Assembly (NCBI GenBank): GCA_028714495.1
Contig: JAQTMH010000001.1
Coordinates: 179,814-243,813 of the forward strand
Direction: 5' to 3'
Source of the DNA: Patescibacteria group bacterium
GTDB taxonomy: Bacteria > Patescibacteriota > Patescibacteriia > JAHIZJ01
DNA: 64,000 bases
Shown here: positions 14,246 through 51,785 of the stretch, piece after piece
Layout of the letters: the number at the start of each line of letters is the position of its first letter
How positions within the stretch are numbered: position 1 is the stretch's first letter
The notes under the pieces: model-generated
What the model was told of the DNA's origin: nothing
Database searches by the model: none
What the model saw: the letters and a program-made list of their open reading frames with translations, nothing else
Translations under genes and position numbers: made by a program

Positions 14246-14738
14246 GGTACTAGATAAACTCATTTGATCCTAAACAATAAATTTTATTACCTAATCTTAG
14301 CCAAAATACCCTGTTGATAACTTATTGGCTCTAGGCATTGACAATTTGTCCGACATCTTCTATGCTTGGGGGCTTAGAAGACAAAACAAAATCTTTACAA
14401 TATAATATTAATAGTATCCGTGAGGCGATGAACTGCAGCCTGAATCTGGTCGCTTTCCCCCTAGAGTTTATTAAACTTTTGGGGGCGGGCTGCGGGGAGC
14501 TAGTAGCGAAACCGACATGGCGGAGGAAGTCCTTCGATACCAAAAACTGCCGCCGCCTCACGCCCAAGAGGCGTTTTTTGTTGGCCTGACCTTATTACCG
14601 GTTGCCTTTAGTGAAATACCTAAAGACAGCCGGTTTGTAAGGTTACTAAGCTCTTTGACAACACGGTGTAAGCGGAACAAAACGCCGAAATACAGCGCGA
14701 AGTTGTTTTCGGGGTTACCACAAAAAGGAGGACCGGTC

Positions 14739-22140: not shown

Positions 22141-22318
22141 TTAGGACTTACGCGTTTGAGACAAGTTCGAGGAAAAATGCGAGGATTTTGCGAGGCGTAG
22201 TCAAACTACGACGAGCAAGGACGCAGCATTTTGACGAAGAAATTGGCCAAAGCCGCTTACTGACCCGGCTTCGCCGGGTCAGTAAGCGGCAAGCGCGTAA
22301 GTCCTAATAATCACGAAG
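22141..22318. mobile_element. MITE-like element with 13-14 bp terminal inverted repeats, copy 1
   Basis: ttaggacttacgcg ... cgcgtaagtcctaa termini; internal hairpins cgtagtcaaactacg and gcttactgacccggcttcgccgggtcagtaagc; second copy at 51253-51425. Confidence 0.6.
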
Positions 22319-25265: not shown

Positions 25266-26770
<1,505 letters not shown>

Positions 26771-26993: not shown

Positions 26994-27476
26994 CTAAACA
27001 AAAGACAAAACAAATCCGATTAATAGCCCAAAAACAAGAATAAAGCTGGCAAATTTCAATATTTTAGATTTCGGTTTTATCGAGTAATTCGTCATCGTCC
27101 AAATTTCGCGCATATATTCCTCGGCCATTTTATCGTCAGAATCGAATACCTTCTTCAATTTATCTTCGTATTCTTCGAGTCCTTTGTCCGAAAAACCCCA
27201 CCAGCAAATAAAACTAAGGCGTTCTTTCCGCTTTCCGCGAAAAGGAAGAAAAACAACAGTTATCGCCATAACGAGCGTAATAAAGGAGCTGATGGCCAGT
27301 ACCAAAAAATTTGAGGCCTCAATGCGAATCATACTCAATCCAAAGATAACCGCGGCGATGCCAACCAAGAAAGAAGCTTTCTGGTCCAAACTGCCCCGCA
27401 GGCTGTTTTGAAGAGTAAGTGAATCACGCAATAAATTAATCGAGTTTTGATTGACTACCATATTTTTATCGATCAA
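26994..27476 (-). CDS. hypothetical membrane protein
   Basis: 160-aa ORF with two central TM helices and one C-terminal TM helix; adjacent to tRNA cluster. Confidence 0.4.
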   Translation of the reverse strand: MIDKNMVVNQNSINLLRDSLTLQNSLRGSLDQKASFLVGIAAVIFGLSMIRIEASNFLVLAISSFITLVMAITVVFLPFRGKRKERLSFICWWGFSDKGLEEYEDKLKKVFDSDDKMAEEYMREIWTMTNYSIKPKSKILKFASFILVFGLLIGFVLSFV

Positions 27477-27570
27477 TTATCAAACTGCATAATCAAATTA
27501 TAACCATTAGTTTATCCATCGTTCTTGATTGGTCGGGGATCGCGGACTCGAACCGCGGACCTCTCGCTCC

Positions 27571-27846
27571 CCCGCCCGACTGCCATGTAATATTTCTGTC
27601 AAACTATTGGTTGGGACGGCGAGCCTCGGATTATAATCCGAGGGAAATTGCTGTCTTCCCGCACCGAGTCGGGGTGCGCGGACTTGAACCGCGGACCTCT
27701 CGCTCCCAAAGCGAGCGTTCTAGCCAACTGAACTACACCCCGACTCGAGGCAGGACGTGCTTCTGCACTACGCCCCGACCAATCGCTGGACTGAACAATT
27801 GTAATTATCAAAGTATAGAGCAACGTAAGCAGCCAGGGCGGGCGGG
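27571..27846 (-). other. 276-nt intervening sequence in tRNA-Pro carrying tRNA-Pro copy B; termini cccgcccg...cgggcggg
   Basis: begins cccgcccgccctggctgc and ends ggcagtcgggcggg in tRNA orientation; no ORF; no recognisable group I P/Q/R/S elements by eye. Confidence 0.5.
27669..27742 (-). tRNA. tRNA-Pro(TGG), intact, no encoded CCA, nested in the insertion
   Basis: cggggtg ta gttc agttggcta gaac g ctcgc tttggga gcgag aggtc cgcgg ttcaagt ccgcg caccccg a. Confidence 0.8.
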
Positions 27847-28046
27847 CAAAGCGAGCGTTCTAGCCAACTGAACTAATCCCCGATGAAAAAATCCCATGTT
27901 TGGGAAAAGCTTTTCTTGTTTTTATATTTTAAGCCTGTTTTTATTACCCGCTGGTGCCGAGGGCCGGAATCCCGCACCACGCAGGGTGCGGGACAAGTCG
28001 AACCAGCATAATTATGAAATGGGCCTCTTTAGTAATTCCGCCCAAA

Positions 28047-28119
28047 TGCCTGGGGTCGGAGTTGAACCGACGACGCAAGGATTTTCAGTCCTTCGCTCTA
28101 CCACCTGAGCTACCCAGGC
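28047..28119 (-). tRNA. tRNA-Phe(GAA), no encoded CCA
   Basis: gcctggg ta gctc aggtggta gagc g aagga ctgaaaa tcctt gcgtc gtcgg ttcaact ccgac cccaggc a; flanked by inverted repeat aattccgcccaaatgcc / ggcatttgggcggaatt. Confidence 0.85.
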
Positions 28120-28182
28120 AGGCATTTGGGCGGAATTGATTTCACAGTAGGATTATATTAGCATATTTCAGTCCGGAGTTCA

Positions 28183-28225
28183 CCCCGTGCTTGTCACGGG
28201 GCTCTACCGACTGAGCTACCTCGGC
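28183..28225 (-). pseudogene. tRNA 5'-half-like fragment fused to GC hairpin
   Basis: gccgagg ta gctc agtcggta gagc followed by perfect hairpin ccccgtg-acaag-cacgggg; no T-arm or acceptor 3' strand found. Confidence 0.35.
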
Positions 28226-28258: not shown

Positions 28259-28299
28259 TGGTGGGCGATCCAGGAGTCGAACCTGGGACCTCGTCATTA
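28259..28299 (-). pseudogene. tRNA 3'-half fragment (Ile-like), CCA encoded, no matching 5' half
   Basis: taatgacgag gtc ccagg ttcgact cctgg atcgccc a cca; closely resembles the 3' half of tRNA-Ile(GAT) at 28396-28472 but with a different acceptor. Confidence 0.45.
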
Positions 28300-28334
28300 C
28301 CCGCCCGACTGCTCCGCACTCGGAGGCGGGCGGG
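28300..28334. repeat. 35-nt palindromic element sharing termini with the tRNA-Pro intervening sequence
   Basis: cccgcccgactgctccgcactcggaggcgggcggg; termini cccgcccg/cgggcggg; same cccgcccgactgc start as the 276-nt insertion; abuts the tRNA 3' half in its anticodon-loop position. Confidence 0.5.
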
Positions 28335-28395
28335 TGACCCCGCACAACTCGCCAGAGCTCGTTTGCGGGGCAGGCGCGCTGAACTCACAGGCGGA

Positions 28396-35714: not shown

Positions 35715-35788
35715 GCGGGTATCGTATAGTGGTAATACCACAGGTTTCCAACCTGTTGCCGGGGGTTCGATTCCCCCTACCCGCTCCA
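35715..35788 (+). tRNA. tRNA-Gly(TCC), CCA encoded
   Basis: gcgggta tc gtat agtggta atac c acagg tttccaa cctgt tgcc ggggg ttcgatt ccccc tacccgc t cca. Confidence 0.85.
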
Positions 35789-35899
35789 ACTGTCAATAAG
35801 ATTAATCTAGAACAGTTCTCCGCCCCCTAATAAAAAATCTAATAAACGGCGGATCCCCGCCAGCCGTCGGGCAGGCACCTTTGGCGGAGATGGACTTTA

Positions 35900-35936
35900 C
35901 CCCGCTGCTCGCGAGCGGCGGGGCCTACCCGCTCCA
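35900..35936 (+). repeat. GC hairpin fused to copy of tRNA-Gly(TCC) 3' acceptor end
   Basis: ccccgctgctcgcgagcggcgggg + cctacccgctcca; 12-nt direct repeat ctacccgctcca with the tRNA 3' end 147 bp upstream. Confidence 0.5.
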
Positions 35937-35981
35937 AATAATTAGATTCAATATATTTAATTCAATTCTAATTTAACATCA

Positions 35982-37888: not shown

Positions 37889-37974
37889 TGGTGCCCAGGG
37901 CGGGACTTGAACCCGCACCCTCTTGCGAGGCTAGGCCCTCAACCTAGTGTGTATACCAATTCCACCACCTGGGC
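37889..37974 (-). tRNA. tRNA-Leu(GAG), long variable arm, CCA encoded
   Basis: gcccagg tg gtgg aattggtat acac a ctagg ttgaggg cctag cctcgcaagagggt gcggg ttcaagt cccgc cctgggc a cca. Confidence 0.8.
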
Positions 37975-38240
37975 AGGTAGATTACCTCTTTACATTATTT
38001 AAAATAACAAATATTAGTATTATACCAACCCAGAACCACGAGGGGGTTCTGGGCCCCGCACCTAACATGGTGCGGGGTTCCACCACCTGGGCAGGTAGAT
38101 TAGCCCTTTACCTTATTTGAAATAACAATATCTGCAACATACCGATTTAAACCACGAAGGTTCTTGTTACCTATCATTAATATTACGAGATTCCGACAAG
38201 CCCTGAACCCAACGTGGTTCAGGGCACCACCTGGGCAATA
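37975..38240. repeat. two degenerate repeat units upstream of tRNA-Leu, each a GC hairpin plus copy of the tRNA-Leu 5' end
   Basis: ccaccacctgggca(g/a) recurs at about 37962, 38081 and 38226; hairpins ccagaacc-acgaggg-ggttctgg, ccccgcacc-taacatg-gtgcgggg, ccctgaaccc-aacg-tggttcaggg. Confidence 0.5.
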
Positions 38241-41637: not shown

Positions 41638-41730
41638 GGCGCTTCTCCTTCTCTTCCGATGGGCTGTTCTAAAAAGAACGAGGGTTGTATGTGCTCGGGT
41701 GGGCGGGGTGATCTCCATCCCCCATCTTCC

Positions 41731-41807
41731 TGGTGCGCGTACCTGGACTTGAACCAGGGACCTCCACAATGTCAATGTGGCGCTCTAACCAACTGAGCTA
41801 TACGCGC
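41731..41807 (-). tRNA. tRNA-Val(GAC), CCA encoded
   Basis: gcgcgta ta gctc agttggtta gagc g ccaca ttgacat tgtgg aggtc cctgg ttcaagt ccagg tacgcgc a cca; flanked by ccatcccccatcttcc / ggaagatgggggat helix; partial copy aatgtggcgctctaaccaac plus hairpin cccccgtgaaaacggggg upstream. Confidence 0.85.
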
Positions 41808-42071
41808 GCACTAGGAAGATGGGGGATCAATGTGGCGCTCTAACCAACCTTGCCCCCGTGAAAACGGGGGTGAGCTAGACGCCCACCTGAACAAACAAAA
41901 TAAATTTAACGACATACATAATCACTTCTTACCTCATAGTGAGCATGCCCCGGATTATCCCCGATTAAATCGGGGACGGGGGACCCCCTGCCTTATAGCG
42001 ACGCTTCTGATATTATGGAAAGGTGTTGTAGCGTCGATATATCGATGACCTACCTATTTATTCACATTCTC

Positions 42072-42148
42072 ATGGTGGGCATGGATGGATTTGAACCATC
42101 GACCCCCGTCTTATAAGGGCGGTGCTCTAACCGCTGAGCTACATGCCC
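42072..42148 (-). tRNA. tRNA-Ile with TAT anticodon (tentative), CCA encoded
   Basis: gggcatg ta gctc agcggtta gagc a ccgcc cttataa gacgg gggtc gatgg ttcaaat ccatc catgccc a cca; same acceptor as tRNA-Ile(GAT); one C-A mismatch in anticodon stem. Confidence 0.6.
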
Positions 42149-42273
42149 ACCATGAGAATTAAATTGTATAGGTCATCGCTATAAGGGCGGTGTCCCGATC
42201 GGCTTGGCCGCGTCAAGACTGCCTACCCCAAAATATGCCCTAACTTTCCGCCAAATATATTCAATTTCTGTGG

Positions 42274-48534: not shown

Positions 48535-48715
48535 TTCTCTACCCTCCTTCTTGGCTTTTTTGGCCCAGATTTATCAAAGAACAAGGTCCTTTCCCAGTAA
48601 TTTGACCTTAGGCCGATTAGTTTAAAATGTCAATATAAAAACAAAACAACGGGGGTTAATAATCCCTGTCGTCTTTATTTAGTGTACCTCTTCCACTATC
48701 TAAGCGTTTATTGAC

Positions 48716-48758
48716 TGGAGCGGGAGACCCCGCCGCTCGCGAGCGGCGGGGCGACCTC
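48716..48758 (-). repeat. copy of tRNA-Gly(GCC) acceptor ends with T-arm replaced by GC hairpin
   Basis: tggagcgggaga-ccccgccgctcgcgagcggcgggg-cgacctc versus genuine tggagcgggagacgggattcgcacccgcgacctc at 48834; same hairpin as at 35900. Confidence 0.5.
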
Positions 48759-48833
48759 TATAACAATTTGGCGGAAGAGGTCGCACCTATATCGAATAAC
48801 AAAAACACCCGGTATAACCGAGATGTCTTTGAC

Positions 48834-48908
48834 TGGAGCGGGAGACGGGATTCGCACCCGCGACCTCTTCCTTGGCAAGGAAGCATTCTACTACTGAACT
48901 ACTCCCGC
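48834..48908 (-). tRNA. tRNA-Gly(GCC), CCA encoded
   Basis: gcgggag ta gttc agtagta gaat g cttcc ttgccaa ggaag aggtc gcggg tgcgaat cccgt ctcccgc t cca. Confidence 0.85.
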
Positions 48909-49035
48909 AAGTGTCGTGGATAAACGCGAAGGTGGGTTGGCAAGTAAACATCAAACTATGCTGCCCGGCATACCCGACTAGATCAGGAACCGGGGGGAAC
49001 CGCCGTATAGGGGTTTTGTCCCGCAGCCCACGCTT

Positions 49036-49110
49036 TGGAGGCCAGGAGGGGAATCGAACCCCTGTATAAGGGTTTTGCAGACCCTCGCCTTACCGCTTGG
49101 CTACCTGGCC
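49036..49110 (-). tRNA. tRNA-Cys(GCA), CCA encoded
   Basis: ggccagg ta gcca agcggtaa ggcg a agggt ctgcaaa accct tatac agggg ttcgatt cccct cctggcc t cca; flanked by cacgctttgg / ccaaagcgtg helix. Confidence 0.85.
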
Positions 49111-49133
49111 ATCAGCTTCCAAAGCGTGGGAAC

Positions 49134-49204
49134 GGGATCCCGCCTTCATTATACTGTATAAAGGTGGCGGGACAGACCGCCGCCTTGCTACTTGGCTACC
49201 ACGC
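49134..49204 (-). pseudogene. degenerate tRNA-Cys-like tandem copy
   Basis: ggcgtgg ta gcca agtagcaa ggcg... retains the acceptor/D-arm of tRNA-Cys but anticodon and T arms are disrupted (cccgccacc...aaggcgggatcccg hairpin, also seen at about 9030-9070). Confidence 0.4.
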
Positions 49205-49278
49205 CAGATTACTGCGCTTTTACAACTATACCAAAAATTTAAAGAGGTGGTCAACGCCACTGCCACTAATTTAATCGG

Positions 49279-51439: not shown

Positions 51440-51630
51440 CCTTCGGGATGGGCCATCTTTTCGACCGAAGATTGGCAATATTTAATAGGGTATCCTGACT
51501 TATGGAGGAATTGCTCGTTGCGCCTTCCCACCCAGCCCATCACGATAGGCTGGACAGTGGCTTTTCACAACTTGCTTCTCCACTTACAGTGGCGGGACCG
51601 CGCTGGATTTTCACCAGCTTCCCCTTATAT
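51440..51630 (-). promoter_or_regulatory. cobalamin riboswitch
   Basis: minus-strand reading ggaagctggtgaaaatccagcgcggtcccgccactgtaagtggagaagc...aagtcaggataccc; diagnostic gguGAAAAUCC / CGGUCCCGCCACUGU core and B12-box-like AAGTCAGGA. Confidence 0.75.
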
Positions 51631-51785
51631 GTCTAATTGTTAATAAACTGCGACTTGACCTGTTGTTTTTTAATTCTAGTCTAAGCGTATTATGATGTCA
51701 AATTAGAATTCAAAATTCTAAATGTTAAATCATTGTTTCCGCCTCTCGACCCTGCTCTAGGCGGCTTCCTTCATTTTTAATTCTC

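Follow-up and report, generated by a model that had tools for sequence, protein, structure and literature searches.

The 64,000-nucleotide stretch of DNA analysed here (the window) comes from contig JAQTMH010000001.1 of a Patescibacteria group bacterium (assembly GCA_028714495.1), has a GC content of 48% and carries a bacterial 16S gene, 12 tRNA calls and genes for ribosomal proteins and ribonucleotide reductase. Downstream of both its tRNA-Gly(TCC) gene (locus A) and its tRNA-Gly(GCC) gene (locus B) lies a chimera in which a GC-rich palindrome of 24 bp is joined to a second copy of the 3' end of the neighbouring tRNA. An initial annotation had pointed out these copies and taken them for a dedicated glycine-tRNA system. 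The copies are borne out by the sequence at both loci and by local alignment, and the chimeras are genuinely present: both loci were 100% identical in two independent Logan assemblies from two sequencing runs (L119-L121). Loci A and B are the only matches to the palindrome in the window, 0 being expected from shuffles.

At locus A, the palindrome begins 111 nt past the end of tRNA-Gly(TCC) and is followed directly by CCTACCCGCTCCAA, a 14-nt direct repeat of tRNA positions 35776-35789; of this tRNA the acceptor strand alone is duplicated. The spacer in between consists of small palindromes of the TCCGCC..GGCGGA type, which is widespread in Patescibacteria loci. At locus B, the order on the tRNA strand is GCGACCTCTTCCGCCAAATTGTTATAGAGGTCG, then CCCCGCCGCTCGCGAGCGGCGGGG, then TCTCCCGCTCCAGTCAA, and the direct repeat comes to 18 nt with a shared G (48711-48728 = 48829-48846), reaching 5 nt beyond the CCA. 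Since the intact gene has the 15-nt T-arm CGGGTGCGAATCCCG between AGAGGTCG and TCTCCCGCTCCAGTCAA, and AGAGGTCG adjoins the 5' side of both this T-arm and palindrome B, the palindrome takes exactly the place of the T-arm. Local alignment of tRNA-Gly(GCC) with its downstream region gave a score of 42 (shuffle maximum 30, n=300) and extended from the anticodon arm to 5 nt beyond the CCA, that is, over a diverged copy of ~45 nt, in which GCGACCTCTTCCGCCAAATTGTTATAGAGGTCG at present folds as an 8-bp stem. A possible decayed 5' half of the same tRNA is included in Table 1 since other tRNAs of the window have such a layout; its local alignment score (25) is no higher than those of shuffles.

With respect to the earlier description, the positions of the copies were basically right, but the repeats are longer than claimed. 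Replacement of the T-arm by a hairpin is exact at locus B, the copy at locus A comprises the acceptor strand only, and what had been called the same hairpin is indeed one conserved unit, with a T.G mismatch at A but perfect at B. Because the repeats run past the CCA into the flank, they arose at the DNA level, like att (attachment-site) or insertion-type duplications. In addition, tRNA-derived sequence is present on both sides of the hairpin at locus B, which argues that the relic there predates the palindrome.

A scan of one genome per species with the query CCCGCNGCTCGCGAGCNGCGGG returned at least 118 loci. Matches in high-GC genomes are due to chance or unrelated; the two free positions of the unit are random there. 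We analysed the low-GC set, defined as loci below 52% GC (76 loci with 80-81 copies, among the matches listed), and all counts of copies given below refer to these listed matches. By record titles, nearly all of the 76 loci belong to Patescibacteria and to many classes of them, including Saccharibacteria, Doudna-, Falkow-, Moran-, Uhr-, Collier- and Gottesmanbacteria, Parcubacteria and Microgenomates; some third-party metagenome-assembled genomes (MAGs) that bear the palindrome carry a Gammaproteobacteria label, which is unconfirmed. The consensus is N-CCCGCYGCTCGCGAGCRGCGGG-N', 24 bp long and GC-rich, with ends that are usually C..G and one conserved T.G mismatch. As 58/81 copies have this same mismatch (C.A on the other strand), 20 being perfect and 2 having T-A, the canonical unit is an imperfect palindrome with a polarity. 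The number of listed copies per assembly ranges from 1 to ~18 (~18 in MAG159, ~10 in MAG021), and many copies are located at contig ends or beside gaps. Enrichment of k-mers in the flanks gave genome-specific words only and no second conserved motif near the palindrome. Among viral contigs there was one match, in a contig of 70% GC, which is probably due to chance, and a phage origin was rejected on this ground.

It is hardly conceivable that the chimeras result from chance resemblance or from an assembly artefact. Contigs of the independent assemblies do break inside tRNA genes, a sign that the region is repetitive, but the two separate runs gave identical sequence, shuffles are expected to give no match, and the same 22-mer recurs in MAGs from many studies and sequencing platforms.

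Most copies (65/81) are intergenic, and those of MAG159 sit between housekeeping genes, e.g. ThrRS and FtsEX; the other 16/81 lie within long open reading frames (ORFs). This intergenic majority and a GC stem of 10 bp downstream of tRNA genes would suit an intrinsic terminator or a 3'-end stabiliser of tRNA transcripts; use of the hairpin as a terminator had been mentioned initially. However, neither window copy is followed by a T-run or called by the terminator scan, tRNA-Gly(GCC) already has a terminator-like site of its own (called at 48808-48822, between the gene and the chimera), and several of the copies within ORFs are in well-conserved enzymes, such as superoxide dismutase (SOD) and an aminoacyl-tRNA synthetase-like protein. 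A terminator role thus appears very improbable. Between co-oriented genes, 16/21 copies show the C.A form on the coding strand, a bias which is at odds with selection of a G.U pair at the RNA level and suggests a DNA-strand effect.

Both empty and filled sites were found in MAG021, where a 16-bp palindrome, TCCGCCAGCTGGCGGA, is itself repeated and present in 9 empty and 7 filled copies, some of them within the same larger repeat. The filled sites read TCCGCCAG-C[22-mer]G-CCAG-CTGGCGGA, which corresponds to a 24-bp insert plus a 4-bp (CCAG) target duplication. Over the low-GC set, 13/80 copies have 4-nt direct repeats at the 24-bp boundary (0.9 expected, at most 4 in 300 permutations) and 10/80 have 3-nt repeats (2.8 expected); once composite repeats are collapsed, ~5 and ~10 independent duplication events are left, respectively. 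Examples of target duplications in pseudo-tRNA-Trp sequences are ggtcTCCA-T[..]A-TCCAaaacc in L080 and ggtATA-T[..]A-ATAacg in L046. A model in which both ends of a double-strand break are extended was rejected for the palindrome, since it predicts ~25% T-A forms and 2/81 were seen.

Because the unit is 24 nt long and free of stop codons in every frame, it can be accommodated in frame in protein loops. In-frame copies were identified in SOD, an EpmA/LysRS-like enzyme, a UvrD-like helicase, a PriA-like protein and a membrane protein, and in six long ORFs the unit is translated as PPLASGG or PAAREQRG. SOD orthologues that are 83-86% identical to the carrier lack the encoded PPLASSG and have ASSGTGGKRP or AANSAGGQRP where the carrier has APPLASSGVGP; one further orthologue (82%) also has the insert. 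With regard to the criteria for miniature inverted-repeat transposable elements, duplications of 3-4 bp are found in a subset of the copies and are absent from A, B and the SOD copy, the unit consists of the 24-bp palindrome alone (such elements usually measure about 50-500 bp), and no parent insertion sequence was seen. The palindrome is a dispersed, probably selfish repeat of many Patescibacteria lineages and is not specific to glycine tRNAs.

Searches for an enzyme covered the window and the surroundings of the copies. Pfam scans of 28 window ORFs detected neither a recombinase nor a transposase nor a GIY-YIG domain, a search of every window ORF of 45 aa or more with a GIY-YIG profile gave no match, and no gene for a Y1 transposase of the RAYT type (associated with repetitive extragenic palindromes, REP) that is flanked by the palindrome was present in the window or in the 8-kb flanks of the copies. 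An IS200-type Y1 transposase gene (PF01797, E = 5.5e-23) was found in MAG021 (L054:5761-6117, minus strand); it is flanked on both sides by its own ~60-nt repeats (agcccagccatagaatggcagggctatgg...), a REP/RAYT-like arrangement in a Patescibacteria genome. A link between Y1 transposases and the palindrome found no support, as this gene has other repeats and no further ones were found in the window or those flanks. A general link with GIY-YIG genes was rejected, being true at tRNA-Trp loci and L205 and not in the window or at most copies.

About 14/80 palindrome copies adjoin real or pseudo tRNA sequence (Trp, Phe and others). The junction tccaaC[..]Gcgattcc in tRNA-Trp-like sequence was observed in five assemblies, and in L023, L040, L066, L082 and L112 a small GIY-YIG ORF separates a pseudo-tRNA-Trp that carries the palindrome from an intact tRNA-Trp, downstream of rpmG. 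This placement suggests that an endonuclease may drive the invasion of tRNA genes and bring a replacement copy. The GIY-YIG ORFs are ~80-110 aa long; another one follows tRNA-Gly(GCC) in L205, and in L023 two units are arranged in tandem. A 5' fragment of tRNA-Phe in L045 stops at a palindrome immediately upstream of the real tRNA-Phe.

For 8/12 tRNA calls in the window, 12 nt or more of their own sequence recur within 400 nt, compared with 35/271 on other contigs; one of the eight calls is a pseudo-tRNA-Ile itself. Short inverted repeats bracket several intact tRNAs, each of which is located inside an older pseudo-tRNA that has the same identity and is interrupted near the anticodon (Table 1). 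At the tRNA-Phe locus, the outer acceptor stem reads gccgagg/cctcggc, as in the tRNA-Phe of L045, and the inner, working gene has gcctggg/cccaggc; the same nesting of two acceptor stems occurs in L186 and L201, and L181 (Val) and L168 (Ile) have matching nested layouts. tRNA-Pro is nested likewise, and here the complementary tracts CCCGCCCG / CGGGCGGG adjoin pseudo-halves ~95 nt on either side of the gene. The relics of the window contain other GC hairpins in their D-, anticodon- and T-loops. In the relic of pseudo-tRNA-Ile(UAU), a different hairpin replaces the T-arm, as at locus B. A call of ARAGORN with a 4-base anticodon ('tRNA-???') represents a pseudo-tRNA-Ile(GAT) in which a 35-nt GC hairpin (CCCGCCCG-19 nt-CGGGCGGG) stands in place of CTGA of the anticodon loop; the homologous relic in L168 has an intact loop and is the hairpin-free, empty-site version. 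Thus, relics of tRNA genes are common in the window and are favoured landing sites of palindromes, of which the tRNA-Gly chimeras are instances.

A split-tRNA or trans-splicing reading of the complementary GC tracts was rejected, as an intact tRNA lies in between and the outer halves are decayed. Upstream of tRNA-Leu we also noticed two tandem 5' fragments of this tRNA, each with its upstream flank, their D-loops being interrupted by one or two GC hairpins. The hairpins of these fragments and those at 27970-27993 and 28590-27 all conform to CCCnnnACC..GGTnnnGGG, and their stems show paired changes. Also common among Patescibacteria loci (L006, L024, L072, L076 and L108 of MAG021; L034, L040, L196, L199 and others) is a second family of small palindromes, TCCGCC-N3-6-GGCGGA, sometimes in tandem with CCCGCC-N-GGCGGG, and its 16-bp form in MAG021 is TCCGCCAGCTGGCGGA. 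Halves of this family flank both window chimeras and also form inverted repeats around tRNA-Phe and tRNA-Ile(GAT); TCCGCC/GGCGGA is only ~2.3-fold enriched near the tRNAs of the window.

Table 1. Positions of the two glycine-tRNA loci, of nested tRNA relics and of other features in the window.
Feature	Position	Strand	Sequence	Basis or remark
Functional tRNA-Gly(TCC), locus A	35715-35788	+		ARAGORN; Rfam tRNA 65 bits
Spacer of small GC palindromes, locus A	35817-35890	+		Sequence, fold, motif family in other loci
Outer inverted repeat of the spacer	35817-35824 / 35883-35890		TCTCCGCC / GGCGGAGA	
Inner hairpin of the spacer	35848-35861		GGCGGATCCCCGCC	
Palindrome copy A, 24 nt	35900-35923	+	CCCCGCTGCTCGCGAGCGGCGGGG	Canonical form, one T.G mismatch
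Relic of tRNA-Gly(TCC) acceptor 3' strand + CCA + 1 nt	35924-35937	+	CCTACCCGCTCCAA	
Functional tRNA-Gly(GCC), locus B	48834-48908	-		ARAGORN; Rfam tRNA 67.5 bits
Terminator-like hairpin + T-run	48798-48822	-	CTCGGTTATACCGGG TGTTTTTGTT	Between tRNA-Gly(GCC) and chimera
Decayed anticodon arm + variable region of pseudo-tRNA-Gly(GCC)	48752-48784	-	GCGACCTCTTCCGCCAAATTGTTATAGAGGTCG	Alignment, hairpin scan, fold
Palindrome copy B	48728-48751	.	CCCCGCCGCTCGCGAGCGGCGGGG	Perfect form; in T-arm position of pseudo-tRNA
Relic of tRNA-Gly(GCC) acceptor 3' strand + CCA + 5 nt 3' flank	48711-48727	-	TCTCCCGCTCCAGTCAA	Direct repeat of 48829-48845
Possible decayed 5' half of tRNA-Gly(GCC)	48937-48969	-		Weak; ends at anticodon loop TTGCCAA
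tRNA-Phe inverted repeat	28034-28045 / 28126-28137		AATTCCGCCCAA / TTGGGCGGAATT	Perfect, 12 nt
Nested tRNA-Phe region	27952-28225			
Intact tRNA-Phe	28046-28120	-		
Older pseudo-tRNA-Phe, 5' part	28202-28225			Hairpin 28183-28201
Older pseudo-tRNA-Phe, 3' part	27952-28006			T-loop hairpin 27970-27993
Nested tRNA-Pro region	27530-27882			
Pseudo-tRNA-Ile(GAT)	28259-28354	-		ARAGORN 'tRNA-???'
tRNA-Val(GAC) inverted repeat	Region 41718-41884		TCCCCCATCTTCC / GGAAGATGGGGGA	13 nt
tRNA-Ile(UAU) inverted repeat	Region 41937-42179			Imperfect pair, ~11-15 nt
Hairpin in T-arm place of pseudo-tRNA-Ile(UAU)	41959-41975			
tRNA-Cys inverted repeat	Region 48996-49205		CCCACGCTT / AAGCGTGGG	9 nt
tRNA-Leu	37889-37974			
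Tandem tRNA-Leu 5' fragments	38017-38092, 38201-38236	-		
Longest window hairpin	22252-22290		GCCGCTTACTGACCCGGC TTC GCCGGGTCAGTAAGCGGC	
Riboswitches (cobalamin, c-di-GMP-II)	51468-51659, 14412-14526	-, +		
ORF with weak match to Pycsar effector TM domain	26994-27476	-		
16S gene	25266-26770	+		
tRNA-Ile, anticodon TAT	42073-42148	-		

The recurrence of relics was further examined at tRNA-Gly(GCC). Among 91 metagenome contigs in which the last 30 nt of this tRNA are identical, most have a plain terminator and 0 have the palindrome downstream; none of them is a close syntenic relative. In L137, L142, L146, L154, L158 and L197, the terminator is followed by a GC-rich structured insert of at least ~85 nt and then by a 20-nt copy of the tRNA-Gly(GCC) 3' end, and L205 has a repeat of ~48 nt after this tRNA that includes the start of the GIY-YIG gene. 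Rfam gave no match for these inserts. Relics recur at tRNA-Gly(GCC), and the specific palindrome does not. The inserts were located at L137:2327-2478, L146:2456-2606, L158:1135-1289 and L197:2272-2476; the first 7 nt of the ~85-nt insert pair with the T-loop and stem of the relic, and insert variants differ by compensatory stem changes (AAAGAGCC/GGCTTTT vs GGCACG/CGTGCT).

A dedicated glycine-tRNA system, as first proposed, does not agree with this distribution: in many Patescibacteria the hairpin also occurs at pseudo-tRNAs for Trp and Phe, between housekeeping genes and, in frame, within ORFs, and it is absent from all of the 91 contigs. It had been added that the proposal would fall if the hairpin were a ubiquitous terminator and the similarity to tRNA ends restricted to the two loci; the hairpin is ubiquitous indeed, but the association with tRNA sequence is wider than two loci.

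Another explanation, which the initial annotation had put forward, is an integrase-type att duplication. A tyrosine or serine recombinase would have inserted an element carrying a replacement tRNA 3' end, hairpin and acceptor strand would represent attR, and the element would since have shrunk to ~100-130 nt; the hairpin would be the terminal part of the element or the site of the recombinase. The part of this proposal that stood is the DNA-level repeat of the tRNA 3' end, extending 1-5 nt beyond the CCA. In addition, the anticodon arm, where the copy at locus B begins, is a classic zone of crossover, the working tRNA has a new terminator-like site behind it, and the 20-nt repeats on other contigs with the same tRNA begin in the T-loop. 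However, neither recombinase nor cargo was found: the 28 ORFs scanned contain no such enzyme, and the distances between the direct repeats (134 nt at A, 100 nt at B) include no ORF. Moreover, the hairpin at B is inside the relic and not at the end of an element, hairpins of this sequence are also found within ORFs and at sites remote from tRNAs, and many window relics represent 5' fragments or flank an intact tRNA on both sides, which one integrase event does not yield. We consider this explanation unlikely as a whole; it may still account for the origin of the relics, but not for the hairpin.

Alternatively, the chimera could be a functional tRNA-like RNA or DNA signal, whose stable hairpin and single-stranded acceptor 3' strand with CCA would imitate tRNA-Gly in its T-arm and acceptor end. 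Such a mimic might serve as decoy or substrate for an enzyme acting on tRNA ends (CCA-adding enzyme, RNase Z or a toxin), as a primer site, or as an alternative partner of the tRNA 5' strand in the precursor. The predicted minimum-energy folds pair the 5' acceptor strand of the tRNA with the downstream copy (z-scores -3.8 and -6.9), the T-arm is replaced exactly at B, some hairpin stands 5' of a relic tRNA-Gly(GCC) acceptor strand in several lineages, and the conserved G.T mismatch would be a G.U pair in RNA. On the other hand, favourable folds are the trivial outcome of any duplicated strand, the sole 5' acceptor strand belongs to the tRNA itself, and a terminator-like site stands between tRNA-Gly(GCC) and the chimera. 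The transcript would contain C.A and not G.U in 16/21 co-oriented cases, the same palindrome is translated within proteins, the arrangement is seen in 0/91 contigs with the same tRNA, and Rfam (gathering or E<=1 thresholds) gave no palindrome or chimera family in the window or related loci. We therefore regard a tRNA mimic as quite improbable.

The explanation we favour, with a probability of roughly 0.6, is that the chimeras are dead copies of tRNA-Gly 3' ends that stem from an old insertion or duplication and into which a mobile palindrome moved later. At both tRNA-Gly genes, such an insertion or duplication would have pushed the old 3' part downstream, the working gene retaining or regaining an intact 3' end; an integrating element, an endonuclease-driven cassette or a local duplication could have been the source of this displacement. 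The relic would then have decayed, and the palindrome would have replaced its T-arm afterwards. The palindrome itself would spread in Patescibacteria genomes as a non-autonomous selfish element that lands in dispensable DNA and prefers hairpin sequence, e.g. that of other palindromes or of pseudo-tRNA arms and loops, or sites next to it. Clean insertions would duplicate 3-4 bp of target, and others would replace a stretch of similar length. Because functional tRNAs cannot tolerate the palindrome, it would be seen solely in dead tRNA copies. Its mover is perhaps an enzyme that recognises hairpins in single-stranded DNA: by analogy, the conserved mismatch and the preference for hairpin centres recall elements that fold as single strands, such as REP/RAYT, the ends of IS200/IS605 and integron attC sites. 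Neither the relic nor the palindrome is likely to be functional for the cell.

Several observations weigh against this explanation. No moving enzyme is linked to the palindrome, and the sole Y1 gene found has different repeats. The window copies A and B have no target duplication and look like replacements of a T-arm, and in SOD the palindrome replaced a stretch of almost equal length rather than being a pure addition; replacement-type copies of this kind are not predicted by simple cut-and-fill insertion. Near-identity of 22-24 nt across highly divergent classes is unusual for families of REP or miniature inverted-repeat elements and could mean a host function or a conserved binding protein, and together with the replacement-type copies it leaves room for a host function or a conversion-type spread. 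A stable hairpin is found 5' of a relic tRNA-Gly(GCC) acceptor strand in several independent lineages (window B, the L137 group, L197 and L205), and this recurrent combination of hairpin and acceptor tail could hint at selection for such a structure. The protein beside locus A has no homologue besides itself, look-ups of exact proteins gave the same organism alone, and no close relative came up for a direct before/after comparison of A or B. Finally, it is mildly unexpected that both window copies are at tRNA-Gly if all pseudo-tRNA targets are equivalent. The arms of the palindrome share five bases (CCCGC/GCGGG) with the tRNA-Gly acceptor stem, which may favour recombination there.

Repetition of a tRNA 3' end in direct orientation is a familiar phenomenon, and so are short palindromic repeats. 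Like REP sequences and the bacterial interspersed mosaic elements (BIME) served by RAYT (Y1, IS200-like), the present unit is a short, imperfect, multicopy palindrome that is mostly intergenic and non-coding and has a conserved stem mismatch giving polarity to the hairpin, as well as an orientation bias. It differs in that its flanks are variable and lack a GTAG or CGTC head, about one fifth of its copies are in ORFs, no RAYT gene was found beside the copies, and the 22-24-mer is nearly identical over many Patescibacteria classes, whereas REP families are specific to species or genera. Rickettsia palindromic elements are reportedly ~100-150 bp long and confined to Rickettsia. They resemble the present unit as selfish palindromes of small reduced genomes that occur in frame in protein genes, where the extra peptide is tolerated, and also in RNA genes and intergenic DNA; the present unit, however, has 24 bp, is GC-rich and sometimes replaces sequence, and kinship in sequence is implausible.

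The mobile GC clusters of yeast mitochondria are very short GC-rich palindromes between genes, in genes and in structural RNA genes. They share with the present unit the short target duplications and the absence of an encoded enzyme, but here the host is a bacterium, the window (48% GC) is not extremely AT-rich, and one conserved sequence is found instead of several classes. Elements integrated in tRNA genes are said to leave attL/attR remnants, which are similar in that an intact tRNA is followed by a direct repeat of its 3' segment, which runs past the gene end and starts in the anticodon or T-loop. The loci described here differ by the absence of integrase and cargo, the limited extent (100-134 nt), the presence of 5' fragments and two-sided nesting, and the overwritten T-arm of the relic. 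A free-standing GIY-YIG homing endonuclease gene, segB, is known from the tRNA region of phage T4 (PMC2330249). The GIY-YIG ORFs between palindrome-bearing pseudo-tRNA-Trp and intact tRNA, or directly after tRNA-Gly(GCC), in related Patescibacteria loci are comparable, and by this analogy the relics may originate from an invasion of tRNA genes that is driven by an endonuclease; the window, however, has no such gene, and classical homing leaves no duplicated gene fragments. Full-text searching of the literature found no account of this palindrome or of nested tRNA relics in Patescibacteria, and neither is mentioned in a paper on group I introns (PMC13011429).

A broader reading, which we put forward as tentative and on balance doubtful, would combine both phenomena: among the dispersed mobile units described in bacteria, the palindrome would be the smallest, and tRNA genes would be serially overwritten by cassettes. 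The nearly letter-perfect conservation of the palindrome across Patescibacteria, including T.G, may imply a conserved hairpin-specific enzyme acting in trans, or a host function. The cassette may comprise an intact tRNA flanked by short inverted repeats, in some cases together with a gene for a GIY-YIG endonuclease, and may enter the anticodon loop of a resident gene of the same identity, the nested pseudo-halves later filling with palindromes. This may amount to a selfish cycle of tRNA gene replacement, with the tRNA-Gly chimeras as late stages.

Additional features of the window are included in Table 1. Its longest hairpin, with a perfect 18-bp stem and a 3-nt loop, is located between the S16 gene and the next ORF. 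Genes for DUF4430 and DUF6580 proteins, beside those for corrinoid adenosyltransferase and ribonucleotide reductase, are preceded by a cobalamin riboswitch, and a c-di-GMP-II riboswitch is also present. One ORF weakly matches the transmembrane domain of Pycsar effectors, the 16S gene has no 23S gene with it in the window, and there is one tRNA-Ile with the anticodon TAT.

The two-fold recurrence at glycine tRNAs is a widespread repeat meeting a widespread type of relic, which should be a caution against inferring a dedicated system from such a pattern. The genomes of Patescibacteria are tiny and thought to be streamlined; if true, a selfish palindrome found throughout the phylum and nested tRNA loci would show that they are shaped by small mobile DNA that escapes annotation pipelines. 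Such palindromic repeats break assemblies (contigs here end in tRNAs), create false tRNA calls, e.g. the 'tRNA-???' of this window, and add peptides to conserved enzymes. The conserved mismatch provides a handle for finding the enzyme that would move the palindrome.

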